Shown here one piece after another: positions 55,748-64,000 of a stretch of 64,000 nucleotides of DNA. The stretch lies in UHGV virus genome UHGV-0371537; one strand, 5' to 3'. The translations under genes and the position numbers were made by a program. This stretch comes from a virus. Within the stretch, counting starts at the first letter, position 1; each line of letters opens with the position of its first letter. The notes under the pieces are model-generated. The model was given only the letters and a program-made list of their open reading frames with translations. It searched no databases and was not told where the DNA came from.

Positions 55748-56362
55748 ATGAGCAACTATCTTCAGGGGAAATACACCCCGGTTAATCCCAAGAAGTACCA
55801 GGGGAATGTGAACAACATCATCTTCCGCTCTTCGCTGGAGTTGGTGGCTTTCAAGTTCTGTGATATGAACTCCGCGATAGTGAAGTGGTCGTCTGAAGAG
55901 ACTGTAATCCCTTACGTGTCTCCGGTTGACGGTCGGACCCATCGTTACTTCATGGACCTCAAGGTGTGGACACACCGTGAAGGACAGGAAGAACTCCAGG
56001 TCACCCTCATTGAGATCAAGCCCAAAGACCAGATTAAGCAGCCGAAGAAGACTCCGTCTATGAAGGAATCAACCTTCAACAATGCGATGCGAACCTGGCT
56101 GGTCAACTCCGCCAAATGGGAAGCCACCCGCGAACTGTGTGCCAAGAAGAACTGGAAGTTCATTATCTGGACTGAAGAGCATCTTGTCCCAGGCGAAGAT
56201 CCCGATGTTCGCAAACAGTTCGAACTGAAGTCGAAGAAGAAACGGGATATGGAGATGGAAGACCGCCGTCGTGCCGAACGCGTCAGATTCTTGAAAGAAC
56301 AGATGCGGAAGGAGATTCATCCCGCCCCAACGGAACGGGATGATGGGCTGTTGCTTCCCTAA
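55748..56362 (+). CDS. 4: head completion protein gp4-like
   Basis: FRSSLELVAFKFCD...VKWSSEETVIPYVSPVDGRTHRYFMD...IEIKP matches the gp4 family pattern (YRSSWEL...WSSEE.VIPY...RYF.DF...EIKP) as recalled. Confidence 0.55.
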   Translation: MSNYLQGKYTPVNPKKYQGNVNNIIFRSSLELVAFKFCDMNSAIVKWSSEETVIPYVSPVDGRTHRYFMDLKVWTHREGQEELQVTLIEIKPKDQIKQPKKTPSMKESTFNNAMRTWLVNSAKWEATRELCAKKNWKFIIWTEEHLVPGEDPDVRKQFELKSKKKRDMEMEDRRRAERVRFLKEQMRKEIHPAPTERDDGLLLP

Positions 56363-56571
56363 CTTCTTTTGTGCCCAGGGGCGTAACAGGTATGTCTGTC
56401 GCGCCCAATTTGCCAACCATCAGCCCGAGCCAATCTGACACACTCACCCCAAGTCTCACCAGTGTACTGTTTGAATCCACATTTGGGGTGATGCTCTTCC
56501 CAAGCCCAACTGCATGATTTACAGTCAGAGCATTCACAATACAGGTCGATGGTGTAGCCTGAAGTAATCAT
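56359..56571 (-). CDS. small Cys-rich protein
   Basis: CECSDCKSC...HPKCG...CYAPGH. Confidence 0.4.
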   Translation of the reverse strand: MITSGYTIDLYCECSDCKSCSWAWEEHHPKCGFKQYTGETWGECVRLARADGWQIGRDRHTCYAPGHKRS

Positions 56572-56573
56572 GA

Positions 56574-56933
56574 TCAGTCACCAACCAAATGAAGGTCCGG
56601 GGGTAATTTCTTCAACATGGACTCCACATCTTCCACTTTAAAGAAATCCGTTTTCTCTCCATCTTGAATTCTTATCATTTCCCCTCTGATGTTGGGCACA
56701 TTGATATAAACATCAGATCCTTCTATTTTGAAAGCCACGGTGTAGAATATAGCATCTGCATCGAATCTGGCTCCGGTGATGATGCCCTTCAACCACACGT
56801 CTTCTTCAGAATCGGAGGTTGGGTCACCCAATTTCAGTTTGATGGCGTCACCAGGGTTAAATTGGGTGCTTGGGACTTCGTTCCGGCGTCTGGCTTCCAT
56901 TTCCGTGAGGAATGTTCTATTTTGCCAGCTCAT
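56574..56933 (-). CDS. hypothetical protein
   Basis: ORF track. Confidence 0.45.
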   Translation of the reverse strand: MSWQNRTFLTEMEARRRNEVPSTQFNPGDAIKLKLGDPTSDSEEDVWLKGIITGARFDADAIFYTVAFKIEGSDVYINVPNIRGEMIRIQDGEKTDFFKVEDVESMLKKLPPDLHLVGD

Positions 56934-56935
56934 GA

Positions 56936-57343
56936 TCAGTCGTCCAGGTGGTCGTAGATCTTCTGACGGAATGCATTACCGCCAGCACAGCCCGTGGCCA
57001 GCAGGCGAGTGCCGCCTGTACCGATGACACTGATGGTAGAGAAGCCCAGGATGCGGCCTGTGATGGACTGGTCGACCTTCACTGTTTCCACCTTGCCGAT
57101 GCGCAACTCATCAGCATCACGACGGATGAATCCGCGCTTGACGATGACACGTTTGTTGGTCACAGCGAATTCAGTGGTCAACACGTTCAGCACAGTCGGG
57201 ATCAGGAACAACAGACTGACACCGAAGGTCGGAACAAACAGCAGTACAACCAGCACATACATCCAGAAACCACTCCACCAGGTCGGGCGGGTGAAGGCAA
57301 TAACGTGCTCGTCTTTGCCGAGCATACGATCTACATAACGCAT
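56936..57343 (-). CDS. membrane protein with bacterial PH-like (bPH_2) domain
   Basis: Two N-terminal TM helices then NKRVIVKRGFIRRDADELRIGKVETVKV pattern. Confidence 0.5.
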   Translation of the reverse strand: MRYVDRMLGKDEHVIAFTRPTWWSGFWMYVLVVLLFVPTFGVSLLFLIPTVLNVLTTEFAVTNKRVIVKRGFIRRDADELRIGKVETVKVDQSITGRILGFSTISVIGTGGTRLLATGCAGGNAFRQKIYDHLDD

Positions 57344-57353
57344 GATAAATTCC

Positions 57354-57863
57354 TTACTTGTCAGGGTTCACTAAAACAGGGTTAGATACCAGTTCGCCGT
57401 TCTTCACAGAATGCTGAACCACAGCAAACTGATCGACCATGCGATACACTTCAATCCCAGCAGCCAACATTTCAATAATACCGTCTGTGATCCGGTACGG
57501 TACATTGTATATGACCTTACCAATCTTGCCACTGTCGATAATACGACGGGTGCATTCCGGACACGGACTGTGGGTGACAAACATCACCAGACCACACCAG
57601 TCTTCAGCCCACTGGGGGAGTTTGTTTAAGGCATTCTCCTCAGCGTGGATAACGCCCACCGATACCAGTTGACCGTCCACTTCTTTCTCGCAAACATTTG
57701 GAGCGCCGGGGGCTGTCCCGTTCCAGCCGATAGATAGGGGCTGGTCAACACGTGGGTCAACGATAACACAGCCGACCTTCAGGCGCTGGGCATAGCTGGA
57801 CAGAGCGTATGCATGAGCAGAGCGCATATGCGCAAACATCATACGGGGTTTGATAGCCATCAC
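57354..57863 (-). CDS. cd: dCMP deaminase
   Basis: Zinc-binding HAEENAL and PCPEC motifs of cytidine/deoxycytidylate deaminases. Confidence 0.85.
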   Translation of the reverse strand: MMAIKPRMMFAHMRSAHAYALSSYAQRLKVGCVIVDPRVDQPLSIGWNGTAPGAPNVCEKEVDGQLVSVGVIHAEENALNKLPQWAEDWCGLVMFVTHSPCPECTRRIIDSGKIGKVIYNVPYRITDGIIEMLAAGIEVYRMVDQFAVVQHSVKNGELVSNPVLVNPDK

Positions 57864-58174
57864 ATCACCAGTTTCTTTTCAAGGAGGAAGATCATGTCGT
57901 CCTGGTCTGCGCGACCGAAGATCTGACCCATGGCGACCATCTGGTGAACTTCTCTGGTAATGATTTCTTTGCCAGGAGTAACTTCATCCAGGTCCATGAT
58001 AGTGCTGACGCGGTCTACCATGCGCGGCGGGTGATTAATGTAGCGCTGCAGGTACTTCTCACGAGTGGCAATCAGGTTGTTCAGCTCGGCGATTTCAGAC
58101 TCTTCTTCTGAGAAGCGCTTTTCCTTCGCCTGTAGTTCAGCCAGACGCTCATACATTTCTTTTAATGGGGTCAT
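57860..58174 (-). CDS. hypothetical protein
   Basis: ORF track; AAGAGGAA RBS. Confidence 0.45.
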   Translation of the reverse strand: MTPLKEMYERLAELQAKEKRFSEEESEIAELNNLIATREKYLQRYINHPPRMVDRVSTIMDLDEVTPGKEIITREVHQMVAMGQIFGRADQDDMIFLLEKKLVM

Positions 58175-58244
58175 TTCCGGTTCCTCTTAATAAACTAAGG
58201 GGAAGTATATACTCCCCCTTCTTCAATAACCGCTGAATCTTTAT

Positions 58245-58583
58245 TCAGAGATAAGATTTACCGAGTTCGGTCAGGCGATAGAACGTCACCTCAGTGTTCG
58301 GCCAGTTCACGTAAGAACCGTCATGAACCATTGAGCCAGCTGGTTCGATCAACCCCTTGGCGAGCAGGGAAGCCCCTGTGCGGGTGTCCCATGGGTCGCC
58401 TTTGACGGAGGTGAAACCACCAGCGTTCGGGCATACCTGGAACGTCCAGACGGTGTTGCCCTTGTCATTTGTCCAGGATTTGGGTTGCAAGTACCGTTCA
58501 CCATAACGGCAATGACCTTTCTCAAAGTTCTCTATCCCGTAGAGAACTAAGAGTTGGTGTCCTGTAATACGCGGCTTTTTCAT
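58245..58583 (-). CDS. hypothetical protein
   Basis: Internal ATG 58583 with AAGGAG RBS; ATGA overlap with upstream gene. Confidence 0.4.
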   Translation of the reverse strand: MKKPRITGHQLLVLYGIENFEKGHCRYGERYLQPKSWTNDKGNTVWTFQVCPNAGGFTSVKGDPWDTRTGASLLAKGLIEPAGSMVHDGSYVNWPNTEVTFYRLTELGKSYL

Positions 58584-58897
58584 GACAATACTCCTTTCAG
58601 AGCTAAAACGGAAAGCACACCAATAATCAACCATGTCGGGATAATCGGCTTGCAGTTCATGTGGGTTTCTCCACCTTCGATGTTTGGACTTCCTTGTATA
58701 AGAACGTGTTCACAGGAAGCTCTGAACGTCATTACACAGCCCATCAACACAATCGGCCTGATATAATAACCCGTTTTAGTTTGCTTCACGATACATGGAG
58801 AGGAGAAGCGCAGATATGGATCCCCTTTCCGGTAGCCTGTGATTGTGACCTTCTGCACTTCAGAAGGCACCTTTTGGCCAGGAAAATAAATTTTCAT
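58580..58897 (-). CDS. hypothetical protein with C-terminal hydrophobic segment
   Basis: ORF track; C-terminal TM-like [20 protein letters not shown]. Confidence 0.4.
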
Positions 58898-59454
58898 ATT
58901 TCAATCCCCAGATTGGTGTATAACAACTCAGACAGGGTTACAGGACGCTTGAATTGTTCCCAACTACAGTTCAGGTATTCACGTTCTTCACGCATTTCAC
59001 TGTGAAGATGACCATGGATATTATACGCCCAGCGGTCCAATTGATAAGGAACGTGAGTGGTCAGCACACGACCAACCGGAGTATCACGCTCATACATCGC
59101 ACCAAAGGAGCTAATCCATCCCTCTTGATACAGCTGCATCAACATCTTGAATCTGTCATGGTTGCCTTGCGCCACCCTGATGATAAAGTTCGGTCGCCAG
59201 TCATCGGGAACCGGGCGGCGCTTGAACTCATCAATATTCCTCTTGGCACCCTCGCGCATCAGGCGAATGAACCCCTCAGCCCCGATGAAGCAGATGTCCC
59301 CAGCCAGTTCAAGGACGTCTCGGGACTTCAGCCCCTGAAAGATACTGTCGATAACTGCAGCATCATGCGCCTCTTGGGTATCGAACCCACGGGGCTTGAA
59401 GACCTTCTTGTGTCCGAGGTGGGTGTCGCCCAGATATTTTACAATTCCTGCCAT
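58894..59454 (-). CDS. calcineurin-like metallophosphoesterase
   Basis: GDTHLGH, GNHD, GHLH metal-ligand motifs; ATG 59454 with GAGGAG RBS. Confidence 0.6.
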
Positions 59455-59882
59455 TATGGTCTCCTCAACCATTCTAAAATCGATACGTTCACAAACCCCT
59501 TATGCCAGCGATGGGGTTTATGGCCTCTGTTGTGTTCGAGCAAACACGTGTCCGGTGGGACACTGAAGTGGATGCCGTCGATGTCGTAGTAATGCCCATC
59601 AATCAGAGTATACACATGACCTTCGGTCTGACTGTAATGGATCTCTGCTTGAGGGTACACGTGCTTCAACAACAGAGCGACCTGGTAACACTTCCCGTTC
59701 TTCCCCACGTACTCGACATCCACCTGTTGTGGAAACACATCTTTGACAAGGTTTATCAATCTCGTGATGTCATTTACAACAACCGAACGTTTCATATCGC
59801 CTCTCCCGAGGATTCGTTGGTGAACCAATGATACTCTATCCCGGATATAGAAAAGCCCCTCACGGGGCTTGATCATCTTCAT
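59454..59882 (-). CDS. hypothetical protein
   Basis: ORF track. Confidence 0.45.
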
Positions 59883-60162
59883 CAGGGAATATACGCCATC
59901 GACCTATTCCATACCACTCACCGATAGAGTTCCATGTCCTTTCCCCAGGCCAGCCACCGACCGAGTAGTAATGCGCCACCAGCCGCCAGTAAGGAAGAGA
60001 GGCCGTGTTCACGCCGCCGTCGGCCTTTAGGCAGGCCAAGTACCAATTCGTGAGACTGAACGCCTGAAATAACGGATGAAGGAACATGAAGTACAGGTAG
60101 CCCAATATGGCTGTGAACACCCCAGCTGTTACGATCACACCGATGACAGTGAATACAATCAT
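59860..60162 (-). CDS. small membrane protein
   Basis: N-terminal TM MIVFTVIGVIVTAGVFTAILGYLYFMF. Confidence 0.4.
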   Translation of the reverse strand: MIVFTVIGVIVTAGVFTAILGYLYFMFLHPLFQAFSLTNWYLACLKADGGVNTASLPYWRLVAHYYSVGGWPGERTWNSIGEWYGIGRWRIFPDEDDQAP

Positions 60163-60791
60163 CCCACAACCTCCAGCCCCATCAGATCTTCCATGGTCTT
60201 CTGAATACGCAGCCAGTCAAGCGCAGCGTCATAACGAGGGTCATGATAGACCATACCTTCCAGTTCCCACGCCTTGATACCAGCATACCGATCCTGCTGT
60301 CCAACACCCTTCAGCCAACTCACGATGTCGAAGGTGTGGTGGTAATCCCAAGGCTCGTTGGAATCCTGCTTACACGTCACCTCAATGATGTGCTGAGCCT
60401 TGCGCAGATCGAACAGGTTGCGATCACACCAGTCAACCGAGCGCGGGTCTACCCCAAGACGATGACAACCCTTGCGGATTTCATCGGCCAGCTGGAAGAT
60501 AGAGATGTCATCTTCCTTGGGGTACAGACTGACTGCGCGAGCCGCATCACACGGGTTACGTTTACCCGCCCCCAACCACCATTCTACCGTCCCAGCGTCC
60601 TTCACGCGACCAAGTTCGAGCTGCTCTTTGACATTCAGCTTAATGAACGTCGTGTGCTCCTCAACCAGCTGCTGAAGAGTATAACGCTTGGTCAGGTCGG
60701 CGATGGTGTGCGCCCAAGACAGCATGACTGCATCATCCCAGCGCCCCAAGGTTTCACTGTCGGCCACAGCCAAAAAATTTGATTTATACAT
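60159..60791 (-). CDS. 3'-5' exonuclease-like protein (DexA-like, tentative)
   Basis: N-terminal FLAVADSETLG (D-x-E) suggests DEDD-type exonuclease. Confidence 0.45.
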   Translation of the reverse strand: MYKSNFLAVADSETLGRWDDAVMLSWAHTIADLTKRYTLQQLVEEHTTFIKLNVKEQLELGRVKDAGTVEWWLGAGKRNPCDAARAVSLYPKEDDISIFQLADEIRKGCHRLGVDPRSVDWCDRNLFDLRKAQHIIEVTCKQDSNEPWDYHHTFDIVSWLKGVGQQDRYAGIKAWELEGMVYHDPRYDAALDWLRIQKTMEDLMGLEVVG

Positions 60792-61035
60792 GCTTATTCT
60801 CCCAACACTTTATTTTGGCTTTTACTGTATAATAATTTTCATCAATGAACTTTTTGTTGACGCGCTTAATTTCTATCTCTGGGCAAAGTAACCCTATAGT
60901 TTCCCTCAAAATCTGGCTCACCCTGGCCTGTGAAATACAATAAATTTCTGATACTTCTTTCGAACTAGTTCCAGACATGACAAGTTTTAGAATATTGACC
61001 TTTTTATAAAATTCTTGATCAAACGCGCATATCAT
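60784..61035 (-). CDS. small HTH protein (sigma-70 region-4-like)
   Basis: SKEVSEIYCISQARVSQILRE resembles region-4/LuxR-type HTH; strongly A+T-rich gene. Confidence 0.45.
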   Translation of the reverse strand: MICAFDQEFYKKVNILKLVMSGTSSKEVSEIYCISQARVSQILRETIGLLCPEIEIKRVNKKFIDENYYTVKAKIKCWENKHV

Positions 61036-61038
61036 TAT

Positions 61039-61638
61039 TCACCCCTCCTCGTCGATGATTTCTTGCTCATCTTCGACAATCATGATACCTTCTGTGTCCA
61101 GATGAGAAAGTTCCATCAGATCATCATCGAATCCGTCTCCTTCCCTGATATAGAAGACTGGGACGACACGACGGCGGGTCTCTTCATACACGCTTTCAGA
61201 GATTCGATTGATATGGCGCACTACACTGTAGAGGTTCAGGCCACCAATACCACAGCCGATAGCAGGCAGGCCGACATAGACAGTTTCGTCTTTAGTTGCT
61301 TCCACAATTTCATGCACCTGCTCAAACAGGGTCTGAACAGAACTGATGACTGACGGCATGCGAGCGTTCGGACCTGGATAAAACTGAGTGTAGAGATTCG
61401 CACCCCAAACGCCCTTGCTGTGGTCAAATGCATAGGACATACCACCCAGGCGTTGCTCTGGACCACGAGGGTCGTTCGCATCGACTTCGCGCAGCGCTGG
61501 GAAGTTGTTGCCGATGTGCAGGGCAATACCCGCGCCCATGGTGGACCAGCAGTTGGCACCGTGGGCAAAGATGTTTATCAGATTGAAGCTGCAGGCGGCT
61601 TTCAGTAAATCACCGCCATTGATTACATAAGTGGTCAT
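61039..61638 (-). CDS. macro-domain-like protein (ADP-ribose binding/processing)
   Basis: VINGGDLL...INIFAHGANCWSTMGAGIALHI...GLPAIGCGIGGL parallels macro domain motifs (GDIT...NAAN...GGGV..AI...FPAISTG); internal ATG with GGAG RBS. Confidence 0.55.
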   Translation of the reverse strand: MTTYVINGGDLLKAACSFNLINIFAHGANCWSTMGAGIALHIGNNFPALREVDANDPRGPEQRLGGMSYAFDHSKGVWGANLYTQFYPGPNARMPSVISSVQTLFEQVHEIVEATKDETVYVGLPAIGCGIGGLNLYSVVRHINRISESVYEETRRRVVPVFYIREGDGFDDDLMELSHLDTEGIMIVEDEQEIIDEEG

Positions 61639-61877
61639 GCGTACTGTCTCCATTCAATAATGCTGTTGTCAACACACAACACCTGAAAGATGCCCGTGCG
61701 GTGGCGATAATCGGTTATCTGCAGGATAAAGTTGTTCCCATTGCGGATAATGGTGTTGACAACGATACCCTTGGCAGCAAGGCGTGTTACTATCTCAGTG
61801 CAAAGGCGGTCCATATAACCGGACACAGAACCTGGTTCAAAGCAGCGCTCGAACAGATTTTCAAATTCTGGATTCAT
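61635..61877 (-). CDS. hypothetical protein
   Basis: ORF track; candidate promoter hairpin upstream. Confidence 0.4.
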   Translation of the reverse strand: MNPEFENLFERCFEPGSVSGYMDRLCTEIVTRLAAKGIVVNTIIRNGNNFILQITDYRHRTGIFQVLCVDNSIIEWRQYA

Positions 61878-61927
61878 TTGTTGTTACCAAACAAGGGGTC
61901 GAGGCGGTAATAATACCGCCTTTTTCT

Positions 61928-62311
61928 TCAATAGAGGTCTTCGGAAAAGAGTTCACGGAAAGGATTGGTTTTGAGGCGGACCTGGTTGATCTGTCCGGCT
62001 TCACGGGCTACGACGCAAGCCTCTTCACGAGTGAGGAAGTTCCCCTGATTGTCGATGAAGCCCTGCTCACGAGTATGAGTAGATTTAATGACGCCAGCCT
62101 CCTTCAGAATCTTGAGCTGGCTGTTCATGAATCGGCTATGGTGTCGGTCAGCAACAACGATTACATCACCATATTTGTTTGCAGCAGCGACCACACGGCG
62201 CTCCCAAGCCCCTTCCGCAGGGAGGTCACGGGTGTACAGGGGAATCACAGTATCACCGATGGAGTCGCCATTCACCTGGGAGAATAATTTACCATCAGTG
62301 CCTGTTGGCAT
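61928..62311 (-). CDS. hypothetical protein
   Basis: ORF track. Confidence 0.45.
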   Translation of the reverse strand: MPTGTDGKLFSQVNGDSIGDTVIPLYTRDLPAEGAWERRVVAAANKYGDVIVVADRHHSRFMNSQLKILKEAGVIKSTHTREQGFIDNQGNFLTREEACVVAREAGQINQVRLKTNPFRELFSEDLY

Positions 62312-62340
62312 TCACGAAAATAACCAAGTAATTTCATAAT

Positions 62341-62661
62341 CTAGTCAATCCATATTTCAGGTTCAGGAATGTCGACCATATCCACTGTCTGGTTCTTCAG
62401 ATCATGGAAACAGTCGCCGAGGAATTGTATTTTGCCGTCGGTCAGGAACAGATGGCAACGTGACGCTGGGTCAGATGCATTCACAAGCAGGCTCGGCGTG
62501 AACGTAGGCTCAACAACATTGTTGTTCCACGTCCACACTGGACCTTGTTCTGGAGATCCCTTCACGCGGTATGGGTGAAGCATATCACACCCAGGACAAT
62601 GAAAATACAGGGAATCACCCATGGACAGAAGTTTAGGACTCAGAAGATGCGACATGATCAA
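62341..62661 (-). CDS. hypothetical Cys-containing protein
   Basis: FHCPGC...WTWN...PTFTPS...CHLFLTDGKIQFLGDC conserved-looking pattern, family not named. Confidence 0.45.
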   Translation of the reverse strand: MIMSHLLSPKLLSMGDSLYFHCPGCDMLHPYRVKGSPEQGPVWTWNNNVVEPTFTPSLLVNASDPASRCHLFLTDGKIQFLGDCFHDLKNQTVDMVDIPEPEIWID

Positions 62662-62945
62662 CCCTCCACGCTTGCTTCAGGATCGTATGGGCGCAGTTCA
62701 CCAATCAGTTTCGGGAAAAGAGCGAACCCAAACAAGTTGAAAGAACGCATGGTGCCGACCATTGCAACATCTTCCCCTTCCTCGATATCTTTCAGGGCGC
62801 ACATTGGGTAATATTCATCGACCTCCGGGTCTTCGGTTTCACCATAGAGGCCAAACGCCACCTCTTCTTTGATAAAGCGAGGAACCAGGAAATCAAATAG
62901 GAAAATGATGAATACCACAGGCGCTGCAGAACGGAGATAGAACAT
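62658..62945 (-). CDS. small membrane protein
   Basis: N-terminal hydrophobic APVVFIIFLFDFLV. Confidence 0.4.
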   Translation of the reverse strand: MFYLRSAAPVVFIIFLFDFLVPRFIKEEVAFGLYGETEDPEVDEYYPMCALKDIEEGEDVAMVGTMRSFNLFGFALFPKLIGELRPYDPEASVEG

Positions 62946-62987
62946 AGCACAATCCTCGCAGGTGAGGAGGGGCGAACCCCTCCGATG

Positions 62988-64000
62988 TTATAGGCCAAGA
63001 GCCTTTTCAAGGTCATCAAGATCTTCAGCGTACAGATCAATGTCCTCTTTCTTACTTAATTCCTTGTGTTGTGCTTCAAGGTTCTCAATCTGCTTGAGTA
63101 GGCGCTCACGGGCATCCAAGGTGATGGATGATAGAGGCATCTTGAACAATTCGTCAAGGTCACCATCAAAGTCTGGGTAGTCTGTCTGGAACAATGCCTT
63201 CAGCTCATCAAGACTGCGTCGTAGGTCAGTCACCACAGCCCATGCAATAAACAGGGCACGATTGTTCAGCTTACGAATTCTGTCGGCCATATCCTTCAAC
63301 AGATACTGGCGACGGTCTTCATACCGTGACAGGCGATAGTTGAAGAACGGCAACAACATATCCTGCCAACCAGCATAACGATGGATTACCCCGTCTTCAT
63401 CCCATGCTGTCCAAACAGGCTTGTTGGCAGAGTACAACTTGAACATCTGCTCAACCTGTTCATCACTCAGCTTAGAGAGTTCACCCCGCTTGAATACAAC
63501 CGTGATATCCCAGCCGTCTTCGGTCGTGTCGTTGGCGTACTCGGTCAGGATACCAGCCTTGTACAGAGGCAGCAACACCTTGGTCTCATAGGTCTTGGCA
63601 AACCAACCCACTGGGACTTCGGTGATATGCAGGGTGGTGGCATTGACGCGACGGAAGATGCCGCGACTGTATGCCCTTCCTTCCTCAGTATAGCCTGTCT
63701 CCCCTTTGTAGCCGTTCCAGTACGGTTTTAAGTCTTTCGGGTCTTCGCCACGGAGAAGCGCTCTCAGGGCACTGAGCACGGACTTAACGCAATGACAAGG
63801 GGTGTCGGTGGAATATCCGGTGCCGATACCATTGATCCCATTCACCAGGAACATGGGTAGGATGGGCAGGAAGAACTTCGGCTCCAGTCTTTCTTCACCA
63901 AGGTAATTGTATTCTAAAATACCCTCATCCTCCTTACGGAAGATCTTGCGGATAACATCAGACACAGCCACCGAAATGTAACGTGCCGACGACGCGTCGC
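62988..64000 (-). CDS. 52: DNA topoisomerase II GyrA-like subunit (gp52-like), partial; N-terminus beyond window
   Basis: FLVNGINGIGTGYSTDTP matches GyrA/ParC motif [21 protein letters not shown]; frame open to window end. Confidence 0.6.
   Translation of the reverse strand, partial: DASSARYISVAVSDVIRKIFRKEDEGILEYNYLGEERLEPKFFLPILPMFLVNGINGIGTGYSTDTPCHCVKSVLSALRALLRGEDPKDLKPYWNGYKGETGYTEEGRAYSRGIFRRVNATTLHITEVPVGWFAKTYETKVLLPLYKAGILTEYANDTTEDGWDITVVFKRGELSKLSDEQVEQMFKLYSANKPVWTAWDEDGVIHRYAGWQDMLLPFFNYRLSRYEDRRQYLLKDMADRIRKLNNRALFIAWAVVTDLRRSLDELKALFQTDYPDFDGDLDELFKMPLSSITLDARERLLKQIENLEAQHKELSKKEDIDLYAEDLDDLEKALGL

Follow-up and report, generated by a model that had tools for sequence, protein, structure and literature searches.

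The window analyzed here is a 64,000-nucleotide stretch of the virus genome UHGV-0371537. Between a gp4-type head completion gene on the plus strand and a gp52-type topoisomerase gene on the minus strand, it carries a block of 17 open reading frames (ORFs), all on the minus strand and arranged head to tail, at positions 56359 to 62945. A preliminary description, made from the sequence alone, had read this region as a dense set of about 17 short orphan genes around a deoxycytidine monophosphate (dCMP) deaminase and, by comparison with the early region of T4, as the place where further inhibitors of host defense are most likely. The gene count proved exact. The block does not begin at 55748 as that description had it; this position belongs to the gp4-type gene, which converges with the block from the other strand. 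Our analysis indicates that the region is probably a conserved accessory block lying downstream of the topoisomerase II genes in Aglimvirinae/Ackermannviridae, in which enzymes of metabolism, eraser enzymes, and small conserved proteins are combined with slots for exchangeable cassettes. A counter-defense role is supported for one gene of the block, coding for a macro-domain protein, and is plausible for a second, coding for a DUF6527/BubE-family protein.

Gene content and coding status of the block

The region from 55748 to 62945 (7.2 kb) was compared by megablast with 50,697 phage records, and 225 of them matched. The top matches were Escherichia phages PC3 and PH4, Enterobacter phage fGh-Ecl02, phages ZQ1, A221, and AV101, and Salmonella phage SKML-39, with 89 to 93% identity over ~90% of the query. 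In PC3, AV101, SKML-39, ChubbyThor, and others, 86 to 93% identity extended over 88 to 92% of the query and the gene order was the same. The classified matches belong to the family Ackermannviridae, subfamily Aglimvirinae, genus Agtrevirus. Judged by these matches, the source is an Agtrevirus-like, Vi1-like Ackermannviridae phage with T4-type replication and morphogenesis genes, and not T4. The block itself is already known, being present in more than 200 published genomes, where its genes are annotated mainly as "hypothetical protein."

The ORFs are tightly packed (Table 1). Most neighboring ORFs overlap by 4 bp or lie no more than 10 bp apart, and only four larger gaps, of about 30 to 70 bp, were found. 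The gp4-type gene and the gene for the 70-amino-acid (aa) protein converge, and their ends overlap by 4 bp at 56359 to 56362, leaving no space in which a terminator could separate the two transcription units. The ORFs were scanned against Pfam, PHROGs, NCBIfam, and PADLOC, and several of them were used in single-sequence PDB searches. A PHROG family was found for 15 of the 17 ORFs (E values of 1e-24 to 1e-74), and only the 119-aa and 83-aa ORFs had neither a Pfam nor a PHROG family. The NCBIfam and PADLOC scans added three matches, a weak PdeM-like one, a weak sigma-70-like one, and one to DarG. Thus, with 15 ORFs in PHROG families and the block 86 to 93% identical in DNA to that of more than 200 sequenced phages, the label of orphans does not hold for most of the genes; a dense run of small, unfamiliar ORFs is not the same as a run of orphans, and truly rare genes here number 2 of 17.

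Several of the ORFs are shorter than 110 aa and have no known function, and one might argue that many of them are not genes at all and are chance reading frames in a transcribed spacer. This explanation is refuted by the pattern of substitution. Compared with one to four relatives per ORF, at synonymous divergence (dS) of up to ~2, the ratio of nonsynonymous to synonymous substitution rates (dN/dS) was between 0.00 and 0.30 for all 17, which means that all are genuine protein-coding genes under purifying selection. The 15 PHROG matches also speak against chance frames, as do the start/stop overlaps, which point to translational coupling, and we regard the probability of this explanation as negligible.

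Table 1. Genes and stem-loops of the block and its two boundary genes. Coordinates are those of the window; lengths are given in amino acids for the 17 ORFs of the block.
Feature	Coordinates	Strand	Length	Evidence and remarks
gp4-type head completion protein	55748..56362	+		phrog_218 head closure 1.5e-57; Pfam TnsA-like_N 9e-18; relatives' annotation; boundary gene outside the block
Protein with 7 Cys, conserved phage family	56359..56571	-	70	phrog_926 7.6e-25; dN/dS 0.03-0.05
Acidic protein, rare cassette, absent from most close relatives	56574..56933	-	119	No Pfam or PHROG family
Bacterial PH domain protein, membrane-flanked	56936..57343	-	135	Pfam bPH_2 2.6e-12; phrog_3707 2e-74; hydrophobic segment, residues 22-62
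dCMP deaminase (T4 cd homologue)	57354..57863	-	169	Pfam dCMP_cyt_deam_1 6e-16; phrog_174 3e-53
Acidic protein	57860..58174	-	104	phrog_4059 1.5e-53; dN/dS 0.12-0.19
Intergenic stem-loop, 10-bp stem, in a 70-bp gap	58197..58220	-		Terminator scan
112-aa protein	58245..58583	-	112	phrog_4677 1.2e-53 over residues 1-111; relatives annotate a 339-nt gene
DUF7618 protein, variable slot	58580..58897	-	105	Pfam DUF7618 1.3e-49; transmembrane-like C-terminal hydrophobic segment 82-105
Calcineurin-type metallophosphoesterase	58894..59472	-	192	phrog_547 6e-44; PdeM TIGR04123 weak, 4e-4
YunG-like protein	59454..59882	-	142	Pfam Phage_YunG-like 1.6e-42 (residues 42-139); phrog_4814 from residue 30
Terminator-like hairpin overlapping the end of the 100-aa gene, beside a cassette slot	59853..59870	-		Terminator scan
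Protein with N-terminal transmembrane helix	59860..60162	-	100	phrog_2531 9.5e-25; hydrophobic segment 1-28
DexA-like DEDD 3'-5' exonuclease	60159..60791	-	210	phrog_255 1.8e-52; D11-x-E13 motif; relatives annotate DexA
Protein with sigma-70 region-4/LuxR-type helix-turn-helix (HTH), orphan cassette	60784..61035	-	83	Sub-threshold matches, TIGR02937 7e-5 and Sigma70_r4 0.0055
Macro-domain protein	61039..61653	-	204	phrog_335 2e-63; dN/dS 0.04-0.07
DUF7234 protein	61635..61877	-	80	Pfam DUF7234 1e-42; phrog_5593
Intergenic stem-loop beside a cassette slot	61901..61922	-		Terminator scan and sequence
T4 Arn.3 homologue	61928..62311	-	127	37% identity to T4 Arn.3, E 7e-20
DUF6527/BubE-family protein, 4 Cys, stand-alone, predicted Zn-binding all-beta protease	62341..62661	-	106	Pfam PF20137, 48.3 bits, cut-off 23.6
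Protein with N-terminal transmembrane helix and acidic C terminus	62658..62945	-	95	phrog_2241 3e-36; hydrophobic segment 1-26
GC-rich stem-loop GGAGGGG-TTCG-CCCCTCC between the topoisomerase gene and the block	62966..62983	-		Read from the sequence
Topoisomerase II medium subunit (T4 gp52-like)	62988..63971	-		Pfam DNA_topoisoIV 4.7e-40; relatives annotate DNA topoisomerase; boundary gene

Macro-domain and BubE-family proteins

The macro-domain protein aligned with T4 Tk.4 at 33% identity over 115 aa (BLASTP E value of 1e-15) and falls into the same PHROG as proteins annotated "Tk.4" in relatives. The two proteins have a homologous macrodomain with a common LYTQF-PGPN motif and a GxGIG loop, and both are small, stand-alone phage proteins encoded among early/middle accessory genes, putatively so in this phage. 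They differ in length, 155 aa for Tk.4 compared to 204 aa here. The difference lies in a strongly acidic C-terminal tail of ~50 residues (61039 to 61200 region), which Tk.4 lacks; the whole protein contains 30 Asp and Glu residues. The second line of similarity is to DarG. The PADLOC DarG model was matched with an E value of 6.7e-8 at profile positions 6 to 134 of 329, which is its macrodomain part, and the best PDB match was 5m3i (E value of 0.018), a DarG macrodomain structure. However, the phage protein does not have the C-terminal DarT-binding domain of DarG, and no darT gene is adjacent, its neighbors being the DUF7234 gene and the HTH cassette. A further difference from T4 concerns the DNA. 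Ackermannviridae phage DNA carries modified thymidine, which could itself affect DarT2 targeting in this phage.

In T4, tk.4 was the sole significant hit on a DarTG2 host, and its knockout sensitized T4; the gene was renamed AdfM, anti-DarT factor, and the expected role of the protein is to remove the DarT2 ADP-ribose from DNA (10.1101/2025.11.20.689424, a preprint). A similar logic is seen with AdfN (T4 30.3), a phage NADAR "orphan antitoxin" enzyme against DarTG1, where the phage again has the eraser of a host immune pair but not the writer; its fold and target are different, and the block has no NADAR protein. Chimalliviruses, with a DarG2-like antitoxin, provide another "orphan antitoxin" precedent (PMC13309987). 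Taken with the homologies above, there is good support for predicting that the macro gene encodes an AdfM-type eraser of DNA ADP-ribosylation and thus a counter-defense factor.

The 106-aa DUF6527 protein aligned through residues 17 to 80 with positions 2 to 62 of the 63-position profile PF20137, which the precomputed Pfam matches name BubE, at twice the family cut-off. Residue conservation was counted over 106 full-length relatives, 15 of 120 clusters being truncated. S57, C69, H70, D83, H86, W43, P56, and G76 were invariant (106/106), and C22 (105/106), C25 (104/106), H29 (104/106), and C84 (93/106, with Ser in the other 13) were nearly so. From these counts, the four-Cys zinc site (C22, C25, C69, C84) is kept in the phage family, and metal binding is predicted. 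An AlphaFold2 model with a mean predicted local distance difference test score (pLDDT) of 95.2 is all-beta with eight strands, and a comparison of this model with the PDB gave no fold match (best E value of 0.08).

BubE is the DUF6527 component of the bacterial Bub ("6E") ubiquitination-like operons; its fold is a compact beta-sandwich, for which no close structural homologues were found, and it carries a zinc site of four Cys together with a Ser-His dyad and cleaves ubiquitin-like protein (Ubl) fusions as well as Ubl-target conjugates (10.1101/2024.11.21.623953, a preprint). The phage protein resembles it in family membership, in its compact eight-strand beta domain without a PDB fold match, in the conserved Cys cluster, and in the invariant Ser and His. 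In both proteins, moreover, 35 residues separate the Ser from the first Cys (C22 to S57 here, C57 to S92 in Citrobacter BubE). There are, however, clear differences. The phage protein stands alone in a lytic phage, without an E1, E2, or Ubl partner; its first zinc knuckle is CPGC compared to CxCxC; it has an extra invariant Asp83 and a second invariant His and lacks the long hydrophobic extension; and its closest bacterial relatives lie in prophage late regions.

The DUF6527 gene was found in 303 phage records: nearly all Ackermannviridae, along with some jumbo and a few temperate phages. From 332 homologues in bacterial genomes, 80 loci were fetched and their immediate neighbors were scanned. 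These relatives are almost always in prophages, and the larger neighboring genes, inspected by eye, were those for terminases, portals, tail proteins, integrases, and UmuC-like proteins. A tblastn search of plasmids with the phage protein also gave prophage-type copies only, and a literature search found no mention of phage BubE homologues. Among close relatives, the gene is broken by different single-base deletions in LHE287 (L001, 7485 to 7801) and AV101 (L004, 1378 to 1694), at query nt 203 and nt 252, respectively, and both also share a stop at codon 5, whereas the window, ChubbyThor, and 4HA11 have an unbroken copy. Because of these frameshifts and the 15 truncated clusters out of 120, the gene looks dispensable and conditionally useful.

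Other genes, cassettes, and stem-loops

All five genes that the preliminary description recognized (the dCMP deaminase, phosphoesterase, exonuclease, bPH_2, and macro-domain genes) were confirmed. They are not the only recognizable ones, since Pfam adds DUF7618, YunG-like, DUF7234, and DUF6527/BubE. The translation of the dCMP deaminase shows the HAE and PCxxC zinc motifs of the cytidine deaminase (CDA) fold. The DNA of Vi1-like phages carries hypermodified thymidine made via deoxyuridine monophosphate (dUMP). The deaminase makes dUMP, so it would plausibly feed thymidine hypermodification in this phage family. The metallophosphoesterase has all five metal-binding motifs (GDTHLGH, GD, GNHD, H, and GHLH); the Pfam Metallophos model gave no match to it at an E value of ≤0.01. 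For the exonuclease, the PDB match was weak (8kel, "Exodeoxyribonuclease," 227 aa, E value of 5.6e-4).

Both Cys-rich proteins pointed out earlier were also borne out at the coordinates given for them, with seven Cys in the 70-aa protein and four in the DUF6527 protein. The 70-aa protein had no match in Pfam, NCBIfam, PADLOC, or PDB. Single-sequence PDB searches gave no meaningful match for this protein or for the Arn.3-like, phosphoesterase, YunG-like, 112-aa, and 119-aa proteins. Weak PDB matches of the 112-aa protein to single-stranded DNA-binding proteins (E value of >0.1) were dismissed as chance. Its start was set at an internal ATG, which yields an ATGA overlap with the upstream gene. 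The true start of the YunG-like protein is probably also internal, at the ATG at 59795, giving 113 aa rather than the 142 aa of the mechanical ORF. This is because the family matches begin at residue 30 to 42, the gene is annotated with 342 nt in relatives, and 59795 is also where homology to ChubbyThor stops. With the earlier start, moreover, the ORF would run into the upstream gene and a hairpin.

The 127-aa Arn.3-like protein is encoded a few genes downstream of the gp52-type gene, as in T4. In T2, a close relative of T4, arn.3 is part of a middle transcript whose last gene is arn, an anti-restriction gene. The structural model has a well-predicted beta-beta-alpha-beta-beta-alpha core and gave no fold match in the PDB. 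In BFVD, the model resembles many uncharacterized phage proteins and domains inside "large polyvalent proteins," which hints weakly at a role in conflicts. The window has one base fewer than four relatives at 62311 to 62340 (GAACTCCCAAC changed to GAA-TGCCAAC), which puts the N terminus MKLLGYFRE, the first nine codons, out of frame and leaves a new in-frame ATG at 62311. This shortening reflects either a genuine truncation of the protein or an error in sequencing.

In the block, a conserved backbone is interrupted by a few exchange slots, and mosaicism is visible from gene to gene, the DNA identity to relatives ranging from 66% to 100% per gene. A good example of a slot is the 119-aa cassette, which is missing in LHE287 and ChubbyThor. 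It occurs in three other phages, and a search of 1.84 billion representative proteins gave 10 relatives at an E value of ≤1e-3. An 11-bp direct repeat, CATGATCAGTC, brackets the cassette (56569 to 56579 and 56931 to 56941) and is the stop/start junction itself, and relatives without the cassette keep one copy of it. This arrangement suggests that the cassette was gained or lost by recombination at the junction repeat. A relationship of the 119-aa protein to Tudor/Agenet-like barrels appeared through one weak link and is not claimed.

The other rare gene, the 83-aa ORF, is represented in a set of 5.8 billion proteins by just one cluster at 90% identity and is found in four phage records with 97.6 to 100% identity. 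The 245 bp that carry it are absent in LHE287 and ChubbyThor, a clean insertion here. The HTH proteins expected in the block come down to this one, with a sub-threshold match, and no other ORF has such a match. Searches gave no supporting evidence for the cassette being a remnant of a homing endonuclease. The DUF7618 slot holds unrelated ORFs in AV101, CAU_YEP3, and ChubbyThor. The G+C content falls to 0.46 over the 83-aa cassette (60500 to 60999) and to 0.44 over the DUF7618 slot (58500 to 58999), compared to ~0.50 elsewhere, which is consistent with recently acquired DNA.

GC-rich stem-loops sit in three of the four longer gaps. ChubbyThor carries two inserts. The first, between window positions 59795 and 59804, is 902 bp long and holds a QueC-like gene and a small ORF; the second, between positions 61889 and 61902, is 232 bp long. 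The stem-loop regions at 59796 to 59859 and 61878 to 61927 coincide with these points of extra genes. This suggests that the hairpin-flanked gaps are the cassette slots of the block. Like the T4 arn middle-gene cluster and the hyperplastic early regions of T4-type phages, the block is densely filled with small ORFs, varies in identity as a mosaic, and exchanges cassettes where there are short repeats or stem-loops. It differs from them in that homologues of MotA, AsiA, and Arn were not found here, in that most of its ORFs are conserved across the family rather than hypervariable, and in that its stem-loops, unlike the promoter-containing ones of T4 early regions, are present without promoters. 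They look like processing or termination signals.

Possible functions of the block

The block is probably a single long leftward transcription unit running on from the upstream replication genes, and by analogy with T4 we infer early or middle expression. Its products would fall into three sets. One, consisting of the dCMP deaminase, the DexA-like exonuclease, and the intact metallophosphoesterase, would serve nucleotide and DNA metabolism. Another probably undoes immune modifications made by the host; in this set, the DarG-type macrodomain of the Tk.4/AdfM kind would remove DarT2 ADP-ribose from phage DNA, and the stand-alone BubE-type Zn/Ser-His protease is proposed to cleave Ubl conjugates. 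The third set is about ten small conserved proteins, four of them membrane-anchored. Finally, slots beside stem-loops or at stop/start junctions take small cassettes that differ between relatives, which in this phage are the 119-aa and 83-aa orphans.

Several observations weigh against this picture, either as a whole or in its counter-defense part. A sigma-70 promoter scan gave 11 sites compared to 10.8 expected, a chance level, with none of them in intergenic gaps, and thus lends early promoters no support. The T4 late-promoter motif TATAAATA had two matches in 64 kb and none in the block, which is uninformative, and a literature search found nothing relevant on an Ackermannviridae transcriptome or promoter study. 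The T4 frame of the preliminary description also does not apply directly, the phage being a member of Ackermannviridae. For T4 AdfM, the evidence is genetic and found in a single preprint, and the chemistry of the macro protein may differ from that of DarG, as the DarG lysine pair aligns to Gly/Pro in the phage protein. For the DUF6527 protein, S57 and H70 would correspond to S92 and H102 of Citrobacter BubE, a putative equivalence drawn from spacing alone, and the authors of the Bub study found no phage that the operons protect against (10.1101/2024.11.21.623953). In addition, most genes of the block are conserved family-wide, which fits core accessory functions as well as counter-defense and is less typical of fast-turnover inhibitors. 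The expectation of further inhibitors therefore stands in part, for the macro gene as a T4 Tk.4 homologue with a DarG match and, speculatively, for the BubE-type gene as a second candidate; overall, the region is an ordinary one. The outcome that would have told against this expectation, a majority of ORFs matching T4 core early genes with housekeeping roles, was not seen, as such matches were limited to 2 of the 17 (cd and dexA).

A rival view is that the block is essentially housekeeping, devoted to nucleotide supply, DNA hypermodification, and replication, with the small ORFs acting as accessory replication or membrane factors that have no anti-defense role. The cd, dexA, and phosphoesterase genes are metabolic, the block adjoins the topoisomerase genes, 15 of the 17 ORFs are kept across hundreds of Ackermannviridae genomes under strong purifying selection, unlike typical anti-defense genes with their fast turnover, and DarG was the only PADLOC match. 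We nevertheless consider this view unlikely. Among characterized proteins, the macro protein is closest to the DarG antitoxin and to a phage factor that acts against DarTG2. In addition, the DUF6527 gene has decayed more than once in relatives, the slots carry exchangeable cassettes, and arn.3 and tk.4 are non-essential accessory genes in T4.

For the DUF6527 protein, the choice is less clear. It may act as an "orphan eraser," freeing phage proteins of host Ubl conjugates, a tentative assignment made from family membership and conserved residues. In its wider form, in which a stand-alone BubE-type Zn/Ser-His(-Asp) protease of several phage families and many prophages would strip Bub-type and possibly Bil-type conjugates, the proposal is rather doubtful. 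On the present evidence, it is about equally likely that the protein is no Ubl deconjugase but acts late or in lysis, for instance by processing or regulating a virion protein, an endolysin, or a spanin, and that its position in the block is incidental; neither of the two can be called probable. At the 80 fetched loci, the immediate neighbors were mainly endolysins of several unrelated families and Rz-like spanins, not Bub operons, and none of the neighbors scanned was an E1- or E2-like protein. The nearest bacterial relatives lie directly between the endolysin and spanin genes in Acinetobacter, Pseudomonas, Rhizobium, and others, and one copy is just upstream of terL in a Mu-like prophage. 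However, the Ackermannviridae gene adjoins replication genes, far from any lysis cassette, and the flanks of lysis genes are classic places for morons as well. Late expression would even suit the stripping of conjugates from virion proteins, given that Bil conjugates a tail protein, and the match to BubE in family and in the invariant Ser, His, and Cys residues argues for the eraser role.

If the orphan-eraser role of the DUF6527 protein is true, it would be the first phage countermeasure of the Ubl-deconjugating kind and would provide indirect evidence that Bub operons are anti-phage systems. The frameshifted variants in LHE287 and AV101 and the intact copies in this phage, 4HA11, and ChubbyThor are a ready-made comparison panel. 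For the macro gene, the prediction extends the AdfM-type macrodomain from T4 to Ackermannviridae, a family used in phage therapy against Salmonella, E. coli, and Klebsiella, and the gene is relevant to predicting host range on strains that carry DarTG. The interest of the region is thus moderate and lies chiefly in its BubE homologue, through which the role of Bub operons becomes accessible to experiment and can be tested directly.

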